64,000 nucleotides of DNA from Candidatus Campbellbacteria bacterium RIFOXYC2_FULL_35_25 (GTDB taxonomy: Bacteria > Patescibacteriota > Minisyncoccia > Phycocordibacterales > UBA12079): contig MFAE01000006.1 of assembly GCA_001774495.1 (NCBI GenBank), forward strand, positions 5,356 through 69,355, in the 5' to 3' direction. Position numbers and translations under genes: made by a program. Below the pieces are notes generated by a model. That model did no database searches. It saw only the letters and a list, made by a program, of their open reading frames with translations, and was not told the DNA's origin. Below, piece after piece: positions 42,954 through 60,120 of the stretch (the first letter of the stretch is position 1; every line of letters starts with the position of its first letter).

Positions 42954-43067
42954 ACCTATTAGTATAAAGTTAAAAGGAGAAAGTTAAAAGGGGGAAAATT
43001 GAATTAAAAAATAAACAAAAAACAAACACTCCTGTGTTTGTTTTTTGTTTTCTCTCTTCTTAATTTT

Positions 43068-46000
43068 CTACTGGTTGTAAACATCACAAAAGACTTTCCT
43101 GGTCATAGGGCCAAAGACTCCGTAACCGGTAGTTGCTTCTGTTCCTGAACAAACAACATCATATTTACACTGGTATCTTTGAACAGCTTTGATAGTTAAA
43201 TTTCCGTAATAGCCCGAGTTTATCCCTTTGGGATAAATCTTCTTGTCTAGGGATAAAATTTCTTGTAACTTTTTGACTTGTTCATTTTCCATACCGTAGG
43301 AGAGGGTGGCATTAAAGTATTGTGAGCAAGTCAAACCATCAATTAGTTTTGTTCCTACTGGGTTAACGATTGGGGTTTGGTCTGTTGTGGAAGTAGCAAT
43401 ACTAAAACTAATATTAGCGTCTGTAGTATTAGTATTCCCGACTGTATCTCTGCACTTAATGTAATAATTATGATTACCGTTACTTAATCTACTAATTATA
43501 GCACTGTGAGTATCCCCACTGGCTGTCATTGTTCCTGTCATTGAATCGTAGGCAGTGTTAGCTACTGTGCTGTATTTACAAATGGCTGTTTCATTCGTTG
43601 TGACAGAAAGAATGGTTGAGGTTGTGCCTGCTGGTAATATGCCCGTTGGAATTAAAGAAGAAATAACAGGGGGAACGGTGTCAGTGATCCCTCCACCAAC
43701 AGTAGCTGTGTTTGAATAGGCGCCTAGATTACCCGCCATATCAAAAGCTTTCACAGAATAGGTGTAGTTTGTGTTGGGTATCAGAGCCGTGTCTGAATAA
43801 AAATTAGTTATGGTTGTTGTAAGGGAATTTGTTGGTGTACAAGAAGTCCCGGCACACCTGTATATGTGGTAACCAGCTACCCCTAGATCGTCAGTTGCTG
43901 AAACCCAAGTTAAATTGATTTGGGAAGAAGAAATTGAAGTTGCTTGTAATCTAGCAGGAGCCGATGGAGCGATGGTATCAACCCAAGCGGAATCGTACTC
44001 ATCATTATCTTCTGCAGAAGCACATCCAGGATCAATAGGATAATCTATTTTTCCATCAGAATCATTATCTATTCCATCGTTACATTGATAAATCCCACTT
44101 AGGGCGCAAGTCTGAGTTCCTGTTGTTATTGGTTTAGTTGCTGTGGTACCACAACTGTTAGCATCTGTGCAAGTTCTTGTCTGAGTTTGTGAGTTGTTGG
44201 AACAAACCCCCCAAGCACTCCAAGAGGAGCATGTCCAAGCTTCGATACAAACAGGGGGAGTATAAATACAAGATTGAGTCAAGACTGGTGAGCCTCCAAC
44301 ACACCCTGTTGGAGTTGAAGATATAATTGTTCTTGATTGTGTTCCATTAGATTGGCAAGTTCCGAAAGTAGAATAGGTGAAGTTAGTGCAGGTGACAGGT
44401 GAAGTAATTGTATATTTTTCCAACCAATTTTCTGCTGACCAACCGTCAGGAGCACTGTCGTAATTCACTTGCCACCACCAGTAACCATCACTAGATACAG
44501 GACCTCCAATAATTGTCCCTAACAAACCAACGGCTTGGGTACCTAAATAAGTTCCCGAAGGTGTAGCGCGGACGTTGAGAGTAGTGGTTGTTTTGGCACG
44601 ATCGTTAATAGCTAGTTTTGTGGAAGCTACCAAAGTAGCTGTGCAAGCTTGTGTTTGAGTAACGGACGGTTTGTTCGTAGTAGTGCCACAACTATTGACA
44701 TCGGTGCAAGCCCTGGTTTGGGTTCGGGAACTATTGTTGCAAGCGGACCAAGCACTCCAAACAGAACACGACCATGATTCGGTGCAAGTAGCAGATGAAG
44801 TGGTTAGGTATTTTTCTAAATATTGTTCCACTGACCAACCGTCAGGAGCATTGTCGTAATTCACTTGCCACCACCAGTAACCATCACTAGATACAGGACC
44901 TCCAATAATTGTCCCAAAAGCCCCTAGAACTTGAGAACCCAAGAGTGTTCCTGTTATTGAAGGAGTGGCACGGACATTAAGAGTGGTTGTTGTTTTAACG
45001 TTGTCATTGATAGCTAGTTTGGTGGAAACTGTTGGGGTAATTGTACAAGACTGAGTGGTCACTGGTGAGCCACCGGTACAACCTGTCGGGGAGGAAGTAA
45101 TAACGGTTCTTGTTTGAGTATTGTTGGATTGACAGGTATTCCAGCTTGAATAGGTGAAAGAGGTGCAGGTGGTAGGAGTTGGGGTTGGATTGATAGCAGA
45201 ACTAGATGGCATCCCGTCCCGTACTTCCCAATCATCAACTTGTCTAGAAAATGTACCTGTCTCTTCTGCATCAATAGATGGGGCAGCCACATAATAAACA
45301 TTATTAGGTGTCCAAACTCCGTCTGCATAATCGGCATCCAACTTTAAAGTACCATCGTACCAGAATTTACTAATCCCTGTAGAAAATTTAATATAGAATT
45401 CGTAATGATGCCATTTTCCGTCAGTCATATTAGGAGTGCCAATGTATTTACTCAACTCTATCATTGTCCCATTGCCTTTGGCAGAGTAATATATTGTACC
45501 ATCATTCATCATTGTGTAGTGAACATAACTTTGAACACCATTCCAATGAGGATAAAATAATTTGAAATTTTCAAAAGTATCGGTGCTTGTGAAATTTGGA
45601 TACCGCATCCAAAAAGACACGTGCATCTCATCTGATGGCCAAGGAGATGGGATATTATTCTTCCAAACAAGATGGGCCGAATTCACATTTCCAGAACTAA
45701 ATGAATATCCAGTTCCATTCCGGCCTACAGCATTAAGATTATAGTCTGGAGGAGAAAGCACAGACCAGTTTGGTCCATACACAATTAATCTACTGTCAAC
45801 CTCTTGGTCATCAAAATTTTCCTGAAAAAGAAGAGAGGAGCCAGAAACAGTAGCAGAAGTACAAGCTTGCGATCCAGTTGTGGTTGGTTTACTTGTGGTT
45901 GTACCACAACTATTGACATCGGTGCAAGCCCTGGTTTGGGTTTGGGAACTATTGTTGCAAGCGGACCAAGCACTCCAAACAGAACACGACCATGATTCGG

Positions 46001-47225
46001 TGCAAGTAGCAGATGAAGTGGTTAGGTATTTTTCTAAATATTGTTCCACTGACCAACCGTCAGGAGCATTGTCGTAATTCACTTGCCACCACCAGTAACC
46101 ATCACTAGATACAGGACCTCCAATAATTGTCCCAAAAGCCCCTAGAACTTGAGAACCCAAGAGTGTTCCTGTTATTGAAGGAGTGGCACGGACATTAAGA
46201 GTGGTGGTTGTTTTGACACGATCGTTAATAGCTAGTTTTGTGGAAACTGTCTGGGAAGTGGTGCAAGATTGGGTTTGGGTGGTGATTGGTTTACTGGTGG
46301 TGGTGCCACAAGAGTTGGCATCGGTGCAGGTTTTGGTTTGAGATTGGGAGTTATTGGTGCAAGTGGACCAAGCGCTCCAAGAGGTGCACGACCATGATTC
46401 GGTGCAGATGGTAGATGGAGGGGTAGTTGATATGGATGATGACATAAACGCAAATGGAGGAAGTCCATCCCAAACCTCATAATCATCAATCGCCCATCCT
46501 CCATGACCATCCGCAGAGTCACATGTCGCTTTCAAAGCAGGAGACCTGTCAAGTCCCGCGCCATTATAATGCCCGGTTATTATATTGTTCCTATCAGAAA
46601 CTATTTCATTATTAATAGCCATCACGAAATGACCATCGGGATTGCTATGGCTTGTTCCGGATGAAAGTTTCATATAAATCTCGACCTTCATCCAATCGCC
46701 ACGAGTATAACTGGCTCCAAACCAATCACTGCCTATTGGTGTCCCAGATCCTCCCTGCCACACCAACCCCACTCCCGTATCTGAAAAAGAGGTGAATGCT
46801 ATCTCCGTGTGTCCTAAACTTCCACCATCAAACCAAAGTTGTTTGGTGTTATAGTATGTATTTCCTACACAATTGGAATAATTTGCATCAAACTTCACCC
46901 AATATTTTATATATAACTCATCCGTTGCAGGAAAGGGCGATGAAGGAAATGCAATATTAAGATCACCACCACTATCATCTAAATTATGCGTGCTCCATGC
47001 TGCAAGGCCCGTATGCCCCGGCACATAAGTTACTATATGGTCAGGATTGCTCGGATGATTATACCAATATTCATACGCGTGGATATAGCCCAACGAATCA
47101 GTAAGGTTGTTTTCAAAATCCACTTTGCTGATTTGATTGGCGGCCTGGCTAACTTCTGTCTTGAATAGAAAAATTCCAACAATGAAAATAATAACTAAAG
47201 AATACCTGGTTATTTTTTTTGTCAT
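43068..47225 (-). CDS. giant secreted multidomain surface protein: ConA-like jelly-roll x2, thrombospondin-type-1-like Cys repeats x4-6, SH3b x3, FN3, C-terminal peptidoglycan-binding domain
   Basis: Signal peptide. Repeats CTESWSC.VWSAWSACNNSSQTQTRACTD.NSCG (WSxWS...RxRxC, TSP1-like), SH3b units (LNVRATPSITGTLLG...WWWQVNYD), FN3 (PSAPARLQATSISSSQINLTW), and a PG_binding_1-like segment (LSYGMENEQVKKLQEIL). Confidence 0.6.
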   Translation of the reverse strand: MTKKITRYSLVIIFIVGIFLFKTEVSQAANQISKVDFENNLTDSLGYIHAYEYWYNHPSNPDHIVTYVPGHTGLAAWSTHNLDDSGGDLNIAFPSSPFPATDELYIKYWVKFDANYSNCVGNTYYNTKQLWFDGGSLGHTEIAFTSFSDTGVGLVWQGGSGTPIGSDWFGASYTRGDWMKVEIYMKLSSGTSHSNPDGHFVMAINNEIVSDRNNIITGHYNGAGLDRSPALKATCDSADGHGGWAIDDYEVWDGLPPFAFMSSSISTTPPSTICTESWSCTSWSAWSTCTNNSQSQTKTCTDANSCGTTTSKPITTQTQSCTTSQTVSTKLAINDRVKTTTTLNVRATPSITGTLLGSQVLGAFGTIIGGPVSSDGYWWWQVNYDNAPDGWSVEQYLEKYLTTSSATCTESWSCSVWSAWSACNNSSQTQTRACTDVNSCGTTTSKPTTTGSQACTSATVSGSSLLFQENFDDQEVDSRLIVYGPNWSVLSPPDYNLNAVGRNGTGYSFSSGNVNSAHLVWKNNIPSPWPSDEMHVSFWMRYPNFTSTDTFENFKLFYPHWNGVQSYVHYTMMNDGTIYYSAKGNGTMIELSKYIGTPNMTDGKWHHYEFYIKFSTGISKFWYDGTLKLDADYADGVWTPNNVYYVAAPSIDAEETGTFSRQVDDWEVRDGMPSSSAINPTPTPTTCTSFTYSSWNTCQSNNTQTRTVITSSPTGCTGGSPVTTQSCTITPTVSTKLAINDNVKTTTTLNVRATPSITGTLLGSQVLGAFGTIIGGPVSSDGYWWWQVNYDNAPDGWSVEQYLEKYLTTSSATCTESWSCSVWSAWSACNNSSRTQTRACTDVNSCGTTTNKPSVTQTQACTATLVASTKLAINDRAKTTTTLNVRATPSGTYLGTQAVGLLGTIIGGPVSSDGYWWWQVNYDSAPDGWSAENWLEKYTITSPVTCTNFTYSTFGTCQSNGTQSRTIISSTPTGCVGGSPVLTQSCIYTPPVCIEAWTCSSWSAWGVCSNNSQTQTRTCTDANSCGTTATKPITTGTQTCALSGIYQCNDGIDNDSDGKIDYPIDPGCASAEDNDEYDSAWVDTIAPSAPARLQATSISSSQINLTWVSATDDLGVAGYHIYRCAGTSCTPTNSLTTTITNFYSDTALIPNTNYTYSVKAFDMAGNLGAYSNTATVGGGITDTVPPVISSLIPTGILPAGTTSTILSVTTNETAICKYSTVANTAYDSMTGTMTASGDTHSAIISRLSNGNHNYYIKCRDTVGNTNTTDANISFSIATSTTDQTPIVNPVGTKLIDGLTCSQYFNATLSYGMENEQVKKLQEILSLDKKIYPKGINSGYYGNLTIKAVQRYQCKYDVVCSGTEATTGYGVFGPMTRKVFCDVYNQ
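44440..46270. repeat. intragenic tandem duplication: about 1.2-kb period, about 315 bp near-identical (44687-45000 vs 45893-46206), plus a diverged third copy
   Basis: ORF-track frames 44671..44859 and 45880..46077 translate to identical 62-aa peptides 1209 nt apart. Direct reading shows only a few mismatches across about 315 bp. Confidence 0.8.
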
Positions 47226-56436: not shown

Positions 56437-59400
56437 TTATTTATTAAGTTTCAATTTAAAAACTAAATCATCGATTTTTATTATTTCTGCGTCAGTTCTG
56501 CACAACTCCGCGTTTGTTCCGCATTTGATTTCTTCTATTCCAGCTACTTTTTTCAAATCTACTTCAAATTTTTTAATAAGATCTTCCCCCTCTTTGTTTG
56601 TCTCAACTTCTAATTCAACCAAATCACTTGGAACAAGATTTTCTTGCTTCCTTAATTTCTGAATATTTCTTAGCAACTCTCGATAACGTCCTTCTCCTTT
56701 TAATTCCGGGGTGATTGTTGCATCTAATTCTACTTTTTCTTCATCGTGTTCCCCAAAAACGACCATTTTCACATTTACCTCATCTTTAATTACTTCAACC
56801 ATCTGTTCATCCATAACTGTCGCTTGTGGACTGTAGGCAGTAAGACTTTGTAGTGGTTGTCTCACCTTAATTCCAAGTTCTGCCCTTGCCTCCAAAGCCA
56901 AAGAAACGATCTCTTTAACTTTTTTCATGCTTTCCAAAATAGCTTCATCGATGTTTACTTCTTTGGTCCAACTCTCGAGGTGCACACTTTCCAAGCCATC
57001 ATTACCTTTAACTTTCTGATAAATTTCTTCCGCCAAGAACGGCATAAAAGGAGCAATAACTTTTGAAAACTCTCTCAAAACAAATTGTGTTGTTGCCAAA
57101 GCATAATCTCGGTCCTTGTCATTACCCCCCTTAAATCTATCTCGAGACCTTCTAATATACCAGGTCGACAATTCCTCAACAAAATCCATAATTGGTCGAG
57201 AAGCCCTGTCTAATTCATAATTATTTAACCCTATGGAAACTTCTTTAATCAATTGATTTAATTTAGTTAATATCCATTTATCCAAAATGTTTTCACTGTC
57301 TTGCGGGTTAACTTTTGTTTTGGAATCTTCCTTGTACAACTCATAAAAAGAATAAACATTCTTAACTTTCAAAATAATTTTCTTCAAAATCTCATCTACT
57401 CCCTTTTCTGAAAAGTTTAAATCTTCTCCCCGAACAATCGGAGAACTAATCATATAATAACGCATCGCATCAGCTCCATATTTATCAAGGATGTATGAGA
57501 TATCAGGATAATTTTTTAAACTTTTTGACATCTTCTTTCCATCTTCCGCCAACACCATGCCGTTCACAATTACATTCTTATAAGAAGTTTTCCCAAACAT
57601 AGCTGTCGCCAATACTATAGACGTATAAAACCAGCCACGAGTTTGATCGGTTCCTTCGGCGATAAAATCTGCAGGAAAACCAATTCCTTTTTCAGGGTTA
57701 AACTTGTCTAAGTTTTCAAAAGGATAATGATTAGAAGCATAAGGCATCGCCCCCGACTCAAACCAACAATCAAAAACCTCTGCGATTCTTTTCATTTTTC
57801 CACCACACTCGCAATCAAATTCAACCTTATCAATATAAGGCATATGTAAATCTGTTTCATAATTTTTATTATGAGGTAATGGGGCAAAATCCAATTCACG
57901 AATTTCAGCATTTCCAAAAAGATTTTCTTCCTCTTTAAAAGCAACTGTTTTCTCGGCATTTAACCCTTTTGCTACGGAAAGCAAAAACCAAGCAGGATAT
58001 TCGTGAGTAACAATTAAGATATTCTTATCTGAATACTTTTTATCTATGTCGTAAATAAAATCTCCCACTCTATTTTTTGTCTCATTAAGACTTTCTCCGT
58101 TAGAAGTAGCCTGTGTAAATTTCCCCAGTAAAGAGCCGGCAAAACTTCTATACTCATCTACATTTTTACCCTCGAGATCACCTACTTGGGCTTCGATAAT
58201 TCTTTCATCAAAAATAATATCGGTTTTTTTAATTCCGATTCCTTCGGAGATTATTTCAGCGGTTTCTTTTGTTCTAACAAAAGGTGAAGAAATGATTACA
58301 TCTATTTTTTTCTTCTTTAGTTCCTCTAGAGCTTCTTTTACTTGCTCTTTTCCTACTTCTGTTAAATGATGAGGATTCGTTGCTTTTGAACTACAAACAT
58401 TCAAGGTATTATTTTCTGCCTCACCGTGGCGAATCACAAAGTAATTATTTGTTCCTTTTGTCTCTTTTCTTAATTCATCAATCGAACCAATTATTTTTAT
58501 CTTTCCACAACCATTATCTTGAGAATTTGTGTTTTGTGTTTCGTGTTTCGTTTGGTTTTTGTGTTCTACACTTTGTATTTTCCTAGTTTGGCAACGCCAA
58601 ACTGGTAACGGAGCTCCCCAAAAACGAGTTCTGGAAATTGCCCAGTCACGAGCTCCTTCAAGCCACTTACCAAACCTTCCGTCTCGAATATTTTCTGGCA
58701 CCCAATTAACTTCTTGATTAGCTTTAATCATTTCATCCTTAATTCCTGTTACTTTTAGAAACCAAGAAGAGGTCGCGTAGTTAAGAAGTGGGGTGTGACA
58801 TCTCCAGCAATGAGGATAAGAGTGTTCAATTTTTTCTTTTGAAAACAACACGCTACCCCCCTCTCTATTAGCCAAAAGTTTTATCATCTCAATATCAGTT
58901 GCCATGTGGTCATCCTTAGGCTTTACGTACAAACCAGCTAACCCATCCCCCACTTCTGATTTAAATTTTCCATCAATTGAAACATGCTGAACAAAAGGTA
59001 AGCTTTCTTTTTTACCCAACTCCATATCATCAGAACCAAAAGCAGGAGCAATATGAACAATCCCTGTTCCATCTTCGGTAGTTACAAAATCAGCTCCGTA
59101 AATTTTCCAACCATTTTTGTGATTTTCCAAACTTTTGTCTTTTGAATAATAATCAAAAAGTGGTTTGTAAGATTTTCCAATTAATTCTGAACCCTTAGTT
59201 ATCTCATTAACATTTTTTACAAGATGACCTAAAAAATCAAACATGTCTTCGTCTTCTCTTGGAGTTATCGGTGTTTTTTTATTTTCAAAAATTTCTTTAG
59301 CAACCCAATAATATTCTTTTTTAAAATTACTTTCGTAAGTTTCTCCTGGCTCAATTTTTTTTACTTCGTTTGTATTTTCAATTTTTAAATAATCAATATT

Positions 59401-60120
59401 TGGGTGAACTGCCAAAGCGACGTTTCCAGGCAAAGTCCACGGAGTAGTTGTCCAAGCCAAAACAAAAGTTCCGGGCTCGTCTGCTAATTCAAACTTAACT
59501 GTCGCTGACAAATCTTTGATATCTTTATACCCCTGATTAACTTCAAAGTTTGAAAGGGTTGTTTCACACCGAGGGCACAAATGCATTGCTTTGTGTCCTT
59601 CGTAAATTAAATTTTTGTCATAGATAGTTTTAAAAATATGCCAGATAGACTCAGAGTAAGAAGTGTCCATTGTCTGGTAACTAGCATTCATATCCACCCA
59701 TCTACCTGTTCGTGGAATAATCTTTTTCCAATCAACATCATAACGAAGCACACTATTCTTGGCCGCTTCATTAAATTTTTCTACTCCATAATCATAGATG
59801 TCCTGTTTGTTTTTGAAACCTAGTTCATCTTCAATTAAATTTTCAATCGGCAAACCATGACAATCCCAGCCCCAACGACGAGAAACTTTTTTACCAAGCA
59901 TTGTTTGATAACGAGGAATGATATCTTTCATGGTTCCTGCCAAAATATGACCATAATGAGGTAAACCAGTAGCAAAAGGAGGTCCATCATAAAAAACAAA
60001 AGAGCCGTTGGGAGATTCCTTCTCGGTAGATTTTTCAAAAATTTTATTATCCTGCCAAAATTTCAGAACTTCTTCTTCACTTTTAGCAGTCTCGGATTTA
60101 TTATTATTTTTATCTTCCAT
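56437..60120 (-). CDS. ileS: isoleucyl-tRNA synthetase carrying an inserted histidine-phosphatase (PGAM-like) domain
   Basis: HIGH (PHYGHIL) and KMSKS (KMSKSLKNYPD) motifs, editing domain (WTTTPWTLPGN). About 250 extra residues (aa ~513-768) containing RHGEAENN...SSPFVRTKETAEII...IVTHEYPAWF lie between WRCQ and CECGG. Confidence 0.85.
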   Translation of the reverse strand: MEDKNNNKSETAKSEEEVLKFWQDNKIFEKSTEKESPNGSFVFYDGPPFATGLPHYGHILAGTMKDIIPRYQTMLGKKVSRRWGWDCHGLPIENLIEDELGFKNKQDIYDYGVEKFNEAAKNSVLRYDVDWKKIIPRTGRWVDMNASYQTMDTSYSESIWHIFKTIYDKNLIYEGHKAMHLCPRCETTLSNFEVNQGYKDIKDLSATVKFELADEPGTFVLAWTTTPWTLPGNVALAVHPNIDYLKIENTNEVKKIEPGETYESNFKKEYYWVAKEIFENKKTPITPREDEDMFDFLGHLVKNVNEITKGSELIGKSYKPLFDYYSKDKSLENHKNGWKIYGADFVTTEDGTGIVHIAPAFGSDDMELGKKESLPFVQHVSIDGKFKSEVGDGLAGLYVKPKDDHMATDIEMIKLLANREGGSVLFSKEKIEHSYPHCWRCHTPLLNYATSSWFLKVTGIKDEMIKANQEVNWVPENIRDGRFGKWLEGARDWAISRTRFWGAPLPVWRCQTRKIQSVEHKNQTKHETQNTNSQDNGCGKIKIIGSIDELRKETKGTNNYFVIRHGEAENNTLNVCSSKATNPHHLTEVGKEQVKEALEELKKKKIDVIISSPFVRTKETAEIISEGIGIKKTDIIFDERIIEAQVGDLEGKNVDEYRSFAGSLLGKFTQATSNGESLNETKNRVGDFIYDIDKKYSDKNILIVTHEYPAWFLLSVAKGLNAEKTVAFKEEENLFGNAEIRELDFAPLPHNKNYETDLHMPYIDKVEFDCECGGKMKRIAEVFDCWFESGAMPYASNHYPFENLDKFNPEKGIGFPADFIAEGTDQTRGWFYTSIVLATAMFGKTSYKNVIVNGMVLAEDGKKMSKSLKNYPDISYILDKYGADAMRYYMISSPIVRGEDLNFSEKGVDEILKKIILKVKNVYSFYELYKEDSKTKVNPQDSENILDKWILTKLNQLIKEVSIGLNNYELDRASRPIMDFVEELSTWYIRRSRDRFKGGNDKDRDYALATTQFVLREFSKVIAPFMPFLAEEIYQKVKGNDGLESVHLESWTKEVNIDEAILESMKKVKEIVSLALEARAELGIKVRQPLQSLTAYSPQATVMDEQMVEVIKDEVNVKMVVFGEHDEEKVELDATITPELKGEGRYRELLRNIQKLRKQENLVPSDLVELEVETNKEGEDLIKKFEVDLKKVAGIEEIKCGTNAELCRTDAEIIKIDDLVFKLKLNK

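Follow-up and report, generated by a model that had tools for sequence, protein, structure and literature searches.

A putative modular surface protein of Candidatus Campbellbacteria and its uncatalogued family of cysteine modules with a predicted thrombospondin-repeat-like fold

The thrombospondin type-1 repeat (TSR) is currently regarded as an animal-type adhesion domain that was passed on to apicomplexans (PMC3417536). Here, we describe a gene at positions 43068-47225 (minus strand) of a 64,000-nucleotide stretch of Candidatus Campbellbacteria DNA (hereafter, the window), whose product is interleaved with cysteine-rich modules that a first-pass annotation had likened to TSRs. TSRs, as represented by TSP_1 (PF00090) and its clan, have three disulfides with the connectivity 1-5, 2-6, 3-4 (group 1) or 1-4, 2-5, 3-6 (group 2, with F-spondin, TRAP and MIC2). 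Each layer of a TSR structure uses three residues of strand A, which is rippled (WxxW), and two of each of the regular strands B (RxR) and C; in an ordinary three-stranded sheet, all strands would be expected to grow by the same amount. Two further groups of described proteins are comparable to the product of this gene, namely wall-targeted proteins of monoderms (lysostaphin-type SH3b proteins and PGB1-containing wall hydrolases) and Gram-positive surface proteins such as alpha C/Rib and the B-repeats of Aap/SasG, in which recombination between near-identical repeats inside the gene changes the protein length. Bacteria of the candidate phyla radiation (CPR) are thought to be episymbionts attached to other cells.

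The open reading frame (ORF) 43068-47225 is a complete coding sequence (CDS) of 1385 aa with 44 cysteine residues, in agreement with the first-pass annotation. Its product is identical (100% match) to OGD67272.1 / UniRef100_A0A1F5EIP3, which originates from a Candidatus Campbellbacteria metagenome-assembled genome (MAG; 139.7-kb contig) and was deposited only as hypothetical or 'Fibronectin type-III domain-containing'. The protein as such is already on record; the notable element is a large uncatalogued family of TSR-like modules, together with an inferred disulfide map and a rule for growth by layers. Two short ORFs on the same strand within the CDS (45059-45337 and 46232-46522) were dismissed as alternative-frame artefacts.

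The protein contains four six-cysteine modules (A1 to A4) and two degenerate four-cysteine variants (B1 and B2), as the first-pass annotation had counted them, and the two variants match the six-cysteine profile in register. All four complete modules have the spacing C-x5-C-x8-C-x10-C-x5-C-x14-C. The core of the family, CTExWxCxxWSxCxNGxQTRxCTDxNxCG...KP...QxC, is shared by numerous unrelated multidomain proteins, where it is often repeated in tandem every 44 aa or so. An alignment of 67 module sequences has ten invariant positions (C, W, C, W, C, C, D, C, G, C), and further positions, including Q-x-R of the predicted strand B, are conserved at 82-95%. When 1.84 billion cluster representatives were searched exhaustively with a module profile, 7,912 proteins carried the module at E ≤ 1e-3, 3,076 at ≤ 1e-10 and 312 at ≤ 1e-30, with up to 17 copies per protein; such modules, earlier described as unusual in bacteria, are not rare among prokaryotes. 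Library scans found no Pfam or NCBIfam model that covers the module, and the literature searched contained nothing relevant on prokaryotic TSR-like domains or on this module in CPR. Its CPR carriers include MAGs of Campbellbacteria, Magasanikbacteria and Parcubacteria, and the JGI name PGF-pre-PGF of some carriers hints at archaeal ones. In a larger genome, the module is linked to polysaccharide-active proteins: protein P0035 (locus L006, on the 1.84-Mb contig ERZ25039495:contig_49020) has an extended WSAWS-type module like those of the window and is one of five consecutive large secreted proteins whose domains include CBM9, Laminin_G_3 and beta-helix (Pel9A-like) ones.

Judged by its sequence, the module falls outside TSP_1. 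A domain scan with hidden Markov models (HMMs), the check that the first-pass annotation had itself named for its thrombospondin claim, gave no match of a TSP1-clan Pfam model to the whole protein at E ≤ 1 or to isolated modules at E ≤ 10, whereas four genuine TSRs in the same library matched PF00090 at E values of 1e-10 to 1e-21, as well as sister families. These control sequences were validated by their Pfam matches. TSP1-clan families were likewise absent from proteins with 7-10 module copies in the same scan, no TSR chain was matched when the module profile was run against PDB sequences, and the profile gave genuine TSRs negative bits. Comparison of the module alignment with an alignment of eight TSRs in hhalign (four of which lacked Pfam validation) resulted in a probability of 12.7% over 16 columns, with W..C and Q.R.C of the module set against W..C and Q.R.R.C of the TSRs. 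The scores obtained with a TSR profile were at most 3.4 bits for canonical modules, 4.6-10.5 bits for those of the window and 14.3 bits for protein P0042. The TSR motif CSxTCG is absent from the family, which has a single Cys followed by x-N-G/N-x-Q. Canonical modules read W-x-C-x-x-W in strand A, with two Trp split by a Cys rather than WxxW, and the consensus of strand B is Q-T-R with one basic residue; RTRT is seen in P0035 and P0042. The WSxWS spacing, to which the first-pass annotation had pointed, is indeed present (as W-S-A-W-S) in all four six-cysteine modules of the window, but it is a rare insertion variant found in 7 of 646 modules, and the strand described as 'RxRxC-like' in fact reads Q-T-Q-T-R-x-C, its only basic residue being one Arg or Lys.

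A different picture emerges from the predicted structure. The AlphaFold2 (AF2) model of module A2, built from the 67-sequence alignment, reached a pLDDT of 83.2, with strands at residues 8-10, 23-27, 30-32 and 46-50. In a Foldseek search of the PDB, 44 of the 50 top matches were TSR-containing chains (TMq 0.5-0.65, probability up to 0.91). Among them are isolated TSRs of Sema5A (TSR3-4, 8ckk), MIC2 (8j64_B), F-spondin (1szl, 1vex) and TSP-1 (1lsl, 7yyk), along with the TSR-bearing Unc5D, properdin, complement C6-C9 and a POFUT2-TSR complex. In such an elongated three-stranded fold, an irregular strand A would carry the Trp residues, and the regular strands B (with Q-x-R) and C would pair with it, so that the strand-A Trp would face Gln and Arg at alternate positions of strand B as in TSRs.

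The pattern of cysteine loss bears on how such a fold might be held together. Among 736 full-length modules from 270 proteins, 646 keep all six cysteines; C2 and C4 are missing together in 81, C3 and C6 together in 2, and single losses do not exceed three for any cysteine. Because these residues are lost jointly and almost never singly, we infer the bonds C2-C4 and C3-C6, which by elimination would leave C1-C5. C2 and C4 are located in the AF2 strands 8-10 and 30-32, consistent with these two strands pairing. The resulting set matches neither of the two TSR connectivities by number. In topology, according to our own mapping, two of the three bonds would equal group-2 bonds: one from the N-terminal Cys to the B-C loop, the other linking the Cys that follows the last Trp, where strand A ends, to the end of strand C. 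The third, C2-C4, has no TSR counterpart; this cross-strand bond would replace a Trp/Arg layer, and the TSR bond C2-C6 would be missing.

The lengths of the segments C2-C3, C3-C4 and C5-C6 provide a further line of evidence. They are (5,8,12) in 485 of 639 non-redundant modules, which we refer to as canonical, and (8,10,14) in the window type, that is +3, +2 and +2; P0042, with (11,13,16), reads WGSWSDWSSC...RTRTKTC. All seven modules with a Trp-adding insertion in strand A (W..W..C) are also longer in the B and C segments, and the only other module with a long A segment, P0136 (16,8,12), has an insert without Trp and no lengthening of B and C. The association of a long A segment (≥8) with longer B and C segments is significant (Fisher p 3e-9 and 1e-11, respectively). 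The 3:2:2 ratio is that of a TSR layer, and therefore argues for a rippled-strand layered fold of the TSR type rather than an ordinary sheet. The register is also as antiparallel layers predict, since C2 stands three residues before the conserved Trp and C4 two residues after the conserved Arg. The WSxWS appearance of the window modules is a rare one-layer extension, caused by the insertion of one extra Trp layer (+3/+2/+2), and four of the seven known cases belong to this protein.

Taking prediction and sequence statistics together, a TSR-like layered fold is the best-supported reading of the module; the thrombospondin comparison of the first-pass annotation would hold at the level of predicted fold, cysteine co-loss and coordinated insertions, and fails at that of sequence profiles. 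Several points weigh against it. The best Foldseek E value was 0.36 and none was ≤ 1e-3; AF2 may be biased towards TSRs present in its training; the disulfides and the Trp/Arg stacking were read from sequence and not from model coordinates; the modules of the census were taken from top-scoring matches rather than as a random draw of the family; and the seven modules with coordinated insertions come from just four proteins, four of them being paralogues, and are non-independent. The high Foldseek E values, the negative outcome of all sequence methods and the position of the modules, always between larger domains, would also suit generic disulfide-rich linkers unrelated to TSRs, with the TSR-like model being an AlphaFold/Foldseek artefact of small Trp/Cys-rich sequences. 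We rate this as the least probable of the explanations considered for the module: ten invariant positions and a strongly conserved Q-x-R are not linker-like, the joint loss of cysteines agrees with the pairing of model strands 8-10 and 30-32, and the 3:2:2 ratio is specific to a rippled-strand layered fold.

A true but highly divergent membership in the TSR superfamily would mean common ancestry with eukaryotic TSRs, through a prokaryotic ancestor or an ancient transfer, and ligand binding via a Trp/Arg face. The structural neighbours, the TSR register found by hhalign, the two disulfides of group-2 topology and the 14.3 bits of the layer-extended P0042 are in its favour. Nevertheless, we consider such an ancestry unlikely. 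In addition to the missing HMM, profile and PDB sequence matches, the short hhalign alignment, the absence of CSxTCG, the W-x4-W arrangement with its intervening Cys and the additional C2-C4 bond, the likeness to TSRs grows only in derived insertion variants, which argues for convergence. The rise of the score with added layers, the missing CSxTCG and the non-TSR bond C2-C4 lean, taken together, towards convergence or very deep divergence. It is only tentatively, and with doubt, that we put forward the wider proposal that the CxxxWxCxxWxxC...QxRxCxDxNxCG module of about 41 residues represents a prokaryotic branch of the TSR fold that is very large and not yet catalogued, present in CPR, probably in archaea and in bacteria with larger genomes, whose layers would consist of disulfides and Trp/Gln/Arg stacks and which would grow by W-x-x / R-x / x-x layers. 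Compared with TSRs, the module is similar in size (about 45-55 aa), in its six cysteines, in its predicted elongated fold and in the number of residues per layer. It differs in the lack of similarity at the HMM or profile level, in having, in canonical form, only two Trp and a single Arg, and in its prokaryotic occurrence, often in tandem arrays.

The modules are distributed along the protein as follows (all on the minus strand, from the N-terminus; bit scores of modules refer to the module profile):

47142..47225, minus: putative Sec-type signal peptide, aa 1-28, with a KK..R n-region, a 14-residue hydrophobic core and a VSQA|A site, judged by eye from the sequence
46440..47141, minus: predicted jelly-roll N1, aa 29-262, homologous to N2 (BLASTP 27% identity, E 8e-7)
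46263..46406, minus: six-cysteine TSR-like module A1, aa 274-321, 49.0 bits
46020..46244, minus: SH3b-like domain 1, aa 328-402, SH3_3 22.7 bits for the domain scanned in isolation, E 1.2e-4 (cut-off 27)
45861..46004, minus: six-cysteine module A2, the one modelled with AF2, aa 408-455, found with the module profile
45201..45842, minus: jelly-roll N2, predicted ConA-like lectin/glucanase fold (AF2 and Foldseek), aa 462-675, no Pfam model for the family
45045..45167, minus: four-cysteine variant module B1, aa 687-727, 10.1 bits, in register
44802..45026, minus: SH3b-like domain 2, aa 734-808
44643..44786, minus: six-cysteine module A3, aa 814-861, 50.0 bits
44406..44624, minus: SH3b-like domain 3, aa 868-940
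44268..44390, minus: four-cysteine variant module B2, aa 946-986, 6.4 bits, in register
44106..44249, minus: six-cysteine module A4, aa 993-1040, 48.7 bits
44001..44090, minus: a single acidic double-disulfide repeat-like unit CNDGIDNDSDGKIDYPIDPGC, aa 1046-1075, NF033662 (acid_disulf_rpt) 22.7 bits (cut-off 41)
43698..43973, minus: FN3 domain, aa 1085-1176, PF00041 29.5 bits (cut-off 25)
43386..43679, minus: Ig-like domain (Big_13-like), aa 1183-1280, PF19077 17.8-19.8 bits, sub-threshold
43071..43328, minus: PG_binding_1-like C-terminal domain, aa 1300-1385, PF01471 19.4 bits, E 0.0012 (cut-off 23)

The FN3 domain, which scores above the Pfam gathering score, is confirmed at the sequence level, and in the PDB it matches the FN3 domain of chitinase A1 (1k85, E 6.8e-11). 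The SH3b and PG_binding_1 assignments, also made earlier in the first-pass annotation, are sub-threshold but plausible, as they are backed by homologues: precomputed PF08239 (SH3_3) matches exist in the 99.8%-identical protein P0001 and in many homologues, and the PG_binding_1-like domain aligns with C-terminal regions of P0006 and P0013 that carry PF01471. With its three SH3b-like domains, its C-terminal PG_binding_1-like domain and its putative secretion, the protein resembles the wall-targeted proteins of monoderms. In contrast to these, no hydrolase or peptidase domain was found in it, and its sub-threshold SH3b and PGB matches are set among lectin-fold and TSR-like modules. Units like CNDGIDNDSDGKIDYPIDPGC occur four times in P0027. 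Genome- and metagenome-contig scans found no close full-length relative; the best match had 39% identity over aa 260-1295, and 60% over parts. A relative from Parcubacteria GW2011_GWA2_38_13 (L004 92-4903, plus strand; >1603 aa) has the same arrangement of SH3b, module, jelly-roll and FN3 with canonical modules; its further features are an extended array of FN3 domains, an acidic segment resembling TSP type-3 and, at the C-terminus, two GHGEAWYVNPADGKRYY repeats.

The two jelly-rolls noted in the first-pass annotation were recovered, as was the FN3 domain. The AF2 model of N2 (62-sequence alignment) had a pLDDT of 94.5 and a pTM of 0.91, and Foldseek returned 454 PDB matches at E ≤ 1e-3. Leading among them are the lectin-like HCN domains of clostridial neurotoxins, domain 4 of the GH43 protein AbnA, PL7 (alginate) lyases, GH16 laminarinase and Cip1, with E about 1e-6, probability 1.0 and TMq 0.55-0.69. 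As a predicted fold, the ConA-like jelly-roll of N2 is confirmed, and N1 was assigned as its homologue. Identity to these structural neighbours is just 10-15%, and by sequence Laminin_G_2 reached no more than E 0.032. Unlike the known ConA-like domains, N2 belongs to a family of its own, mostly stand-alone hypothetical proteins of about 250 aa, mainly from MAGs of Desulfobacterota, and also of Desulfuromonadales and Elusimicrobia (loci L001-L003, L008-L011). These share 50-70% identity with N2, are rich in conserved charged residues and are in some cases fused to dockerin, Big_5 or PKD. Conservation of this degree between phyla suggests that the family has spread laterally and may act as an enzyme or in very specific binding.

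At the DNA level, two pairs of repeats stand out:

45904..46205, no strand assigned: near-identical block, copy 1, aa 341-441, 302 nt with 1 mismatch to copy 2
44686..44987, no strand assigned: near-identical block, copy 2, aa 747-847, 1218 nt from copy 1
44852..44915, no strand assigned: 64-nt perfect direct repeat, first copy, in the core of SH3b-2, holding the junction of the 132-aa deletion of P0001
44456..44519, no strand assigned: 64-nt perfect direct repeat, second copy, in the core of SH3b-3, 396 nt from the first

The near-identical repeat reported by the first-pass annotation exists, although it had been placed at 45893-46206 and 44687-45000 with about 315 bp; its period was given as 1209 bp, against a spacing of 1218 nt found here and the 1206 implied by the annotation's own coordinates. 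The longest exact run is 262 nt, far beyond chance, and the block covers the C-terminal two-thirds of an SH3b domain and the first two-thirds of the following cysteine module. A very recent internal duplication of 1.2 kb, as had been proposed, does not account for it. Only about 0.3 kb is near-identical, the edges are sharp (ungapped 150-nt flanks are 49% and 39% identical) and roughly 0.9 kb between the copies, with jelly-roll N2 and module B1, is unduplicated at the DNA level, which is why we interpret the block as a probable gene-conversion tract between two older paralogous cassettes. The sole mismatch is nonsynonymous (44725, CGA for Arg834, versus 45943, CAA for Gln428). It changes Q-x-Q-x-R to R-x-Q-x-R at a site on the strand-B face that would stack on the extra Trp layer.

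The 64-nt repeat is present in all three SH3b copies, and it is here that a length variant is found. P0001, from an independent assembly (SRC, SRR3989339), is 1253 aa long; relative to the window protein, it shows two substitutions and a gap of 132 aa. Module A3 is lost in this gap, together with the C-terminal portion of SH3b-2 before it and the N-terminal portion of SH3b-3 after it, and the gap can be placed anywhere in aa 771-792, that is within the perfect repeat. The locus had been seen as a hotspot of recombination or assembly collapse, and P0001 is such a case, with its junction in the 64-nt repeat between SH3b-2 and SH3b-3 rather than in the near-identical pair. P0001 was rejected as an ancestor from which the window form arose by tandem duplication, as it does not contain module A3; because no simple duplication of a P0001 segment yields the window arrangement, the two forms are more easily connected by a deletion between the 64-nt repeats. 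The repeat spacings (1218, 402 and 396 nt) are all multiples of three, so that length variation is possible and on/off switching is excluded; the phase variation suggested earlier does not fit them, and the observed variant is an in-frame deletion. No closer relatives for a comparison of copy number beyond P0001 were found in the contig scans, and exact look-ups of the window protein and P0001 gave no genomic context. As in alpha C/Rib and Aap/SasG, there are long identical in-frame direct repeats within the gene and a variant that differs by exactly one unit, be it natural or due to assembly. In contrast to those proteins, the repeats are interspersed cassettes and not long tandem arrays, and the variant is a single, putative one.

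The gene lies in the following surroundings:

43013..43050, minus: terminator-like hairpin of 17 bp followed by a T-run, 18 nt after the stop codon
41157-42953, minus: type IV secretion system (T4SS) coupling-protein-like ATPase (TrwB_AAD_bind, TraG-D_C), downstream, ending in a long C-terminal low-complexity tail with many Thr, Lys and Glu residues
39618-41120: LTD+PKD protein, downstream, with a C-terminal hydrophobic segment
about 17687-39537, mostly minus: surface-glycan biosynthesis cluster with a Wzy_C/TPR protein, at least four GT4 glycosyltransferases among similar-sized ORFs and an NAD-dependent epimerase

Upstream are a DUF4015 glycosidase-like gene and several aminoacyl-tRNA synthetase genes. 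Besides the coupling-protein-like ATPase, no T4SS core genes were recognised among the neighbours scanned. We rejected the idea of an adhesin belonging to a type IV secretion locus, as the other scanned neighbours are housekeeping, glycan-synthesis and surface-protein genes and the terminator-like hairpin separates the gene from the ATPase. Elsewhere in the window, a 1227-aa class-I (IleRS-like) tRNA synthetase (56437-60120, minus strand) carries His_Phos_1 (aa 561-729, E 2.6e-31) inside its catalytic domain, an unusual insertion or fusion. The GC content of gene 43068-47225 is 0.423, compared with 0.344 for the whole window; this is probably, at least in part, a composition effect of a sequence rich in Thr, Ser, Gly, Cys and Trp, and a foreign origin of some parts of the gene is still conceivable.

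On balance, we favour, with reasonable but not high confidence, the interpretation of the protein as a Sec-exported, disulfide-rich, glycan-binding adhesin that is non-covalently associated with the wall, contains TSR-like connector modules and is built from cassettes that undergo gene conversion and in-frame recombination. A surface role is supported by the location of the gene near the surface-glycan cluster, the LTD+PKD protein and the DUF4015 glycosidase-like protein. The judging of the signal peptide by eye is a weak point, the SH3_3, PG_binding_1 and Big_13 scores all lie under the Pfam gathering scores, and the 50-70% identity of the jelly-roll family across phyla could mean an enzyme and not a lectin. 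The protein might then be mainly a secreted carbohydrate-active enzyme or wall-remodelling factor, with catalytic jelly-rolls similar to those of glycoside hydrolase (GH) family 16 or polysaccharide lyase (PL) family 7 and with SH3b and PG-binding domains that target a substrate wall, possibly that of a host. PL7 alginate lyases, GH16 laminarinase and Cip1 are among the structural neighbours, conserved charged residues and fusions to dockerin, Big_5 and PKD are features of the N2 family, a putative glycosidase is encoded upstream and the presumed episymbiotic lifestyle of CPR would suit such a role. Yet the top structural matches are non-catalytic and lectin-like (neurotoxin HCN, AbnA domain 4), the identity to any enzyme is low, no GH or PL match was obtained by Pfam or PDB sequence searches and no catalytic motif was identified; an enzyme is a live but less probable alternative to an adhesin. 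As to the polarity of the tether, an adhesin on the cell's own wall is plausible, and the wall of a host would be just as good a target for the SH3b and PG-binding domains.

A more serious concern is that the repeat arrangement, here or in the shorter P0001, could be an artefact of short-read assembly. Within 1.8 kb, the sequence contains an exact repeat of 262 nt as well as a 64-nt one in three exact copies, the two assemblies differ by exactly one 396-nt unit along with just two amino-acid changes, and the junction falls inside a perfect repeat. An intact reading frame and intact domain boundaries in both versions speak against such an artefact, the hybrid SH3b of P0001 is also expected from homologous recombination, and the one nonsynonymous difference indicates that the near-identical copies were resolved as distinct. 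We therefore regard an artefact as possible, though not the likelier case; P0001 on its own fits homologous recombination or slippage in vivo and short-read assembly collapse alike. As a practical warning, assemblies of near-identical populations disagree here by one domain cassette.

Based on the adhesin interpretation, we propose the following hypothetical scenario, in which (i) Sec export and signal-peptide cleavage would yield a mature protein of about 1,357 residues with about 20 disulfides, resembling beads on a string; (ii) the three SH3b-like domains and the C-terminal PG_binding_1-like domain would be the probable cell-wall binders, attachment occurring via the PGB-like domain and perhaps SH3b; (iii) the FN3 and Ig-like domains would serve as spacers and the six cysteine modules of about 41-48 residues would join the domains, most likely as rigid disulfide-locked connectors that may also offer a polar Trp/Gln/Arg binding face; (iv) this semi-rigid stalk of TSR-like modules, FN3 and Ig-like domains would project the two ConA-like jelly-rolls as probable carbohydrate-recognising heads, allowing the presumably episymbiotic CPR cell to attach to glycans of a host or matrix; (v) gene conversion would homogenise the SH3b-module cassettes, leaving the 302-nt tract, and in-frame recombination would produce length variants.

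The surface proteins of CPR/Patescibacteria are almost wholly uncharacterised, and the locus provides a complete modular candidate adhesin. The inferred disulfide map and the layer-insertion rule are directly testable. If the TSR-like fold is confirmed, the module merits a new family entry, which would improve the annotation of many giant surface proteins now listed as hypothetical, and it would bear on the origin of the TSR fold, by convergence or by shared ancestry. Should the module share ancestry with eukaryotic TSRs, it would point to a prokaryotic origin of the TSR and offer a minimal model for the evolution of the Trp-Arg ladder.

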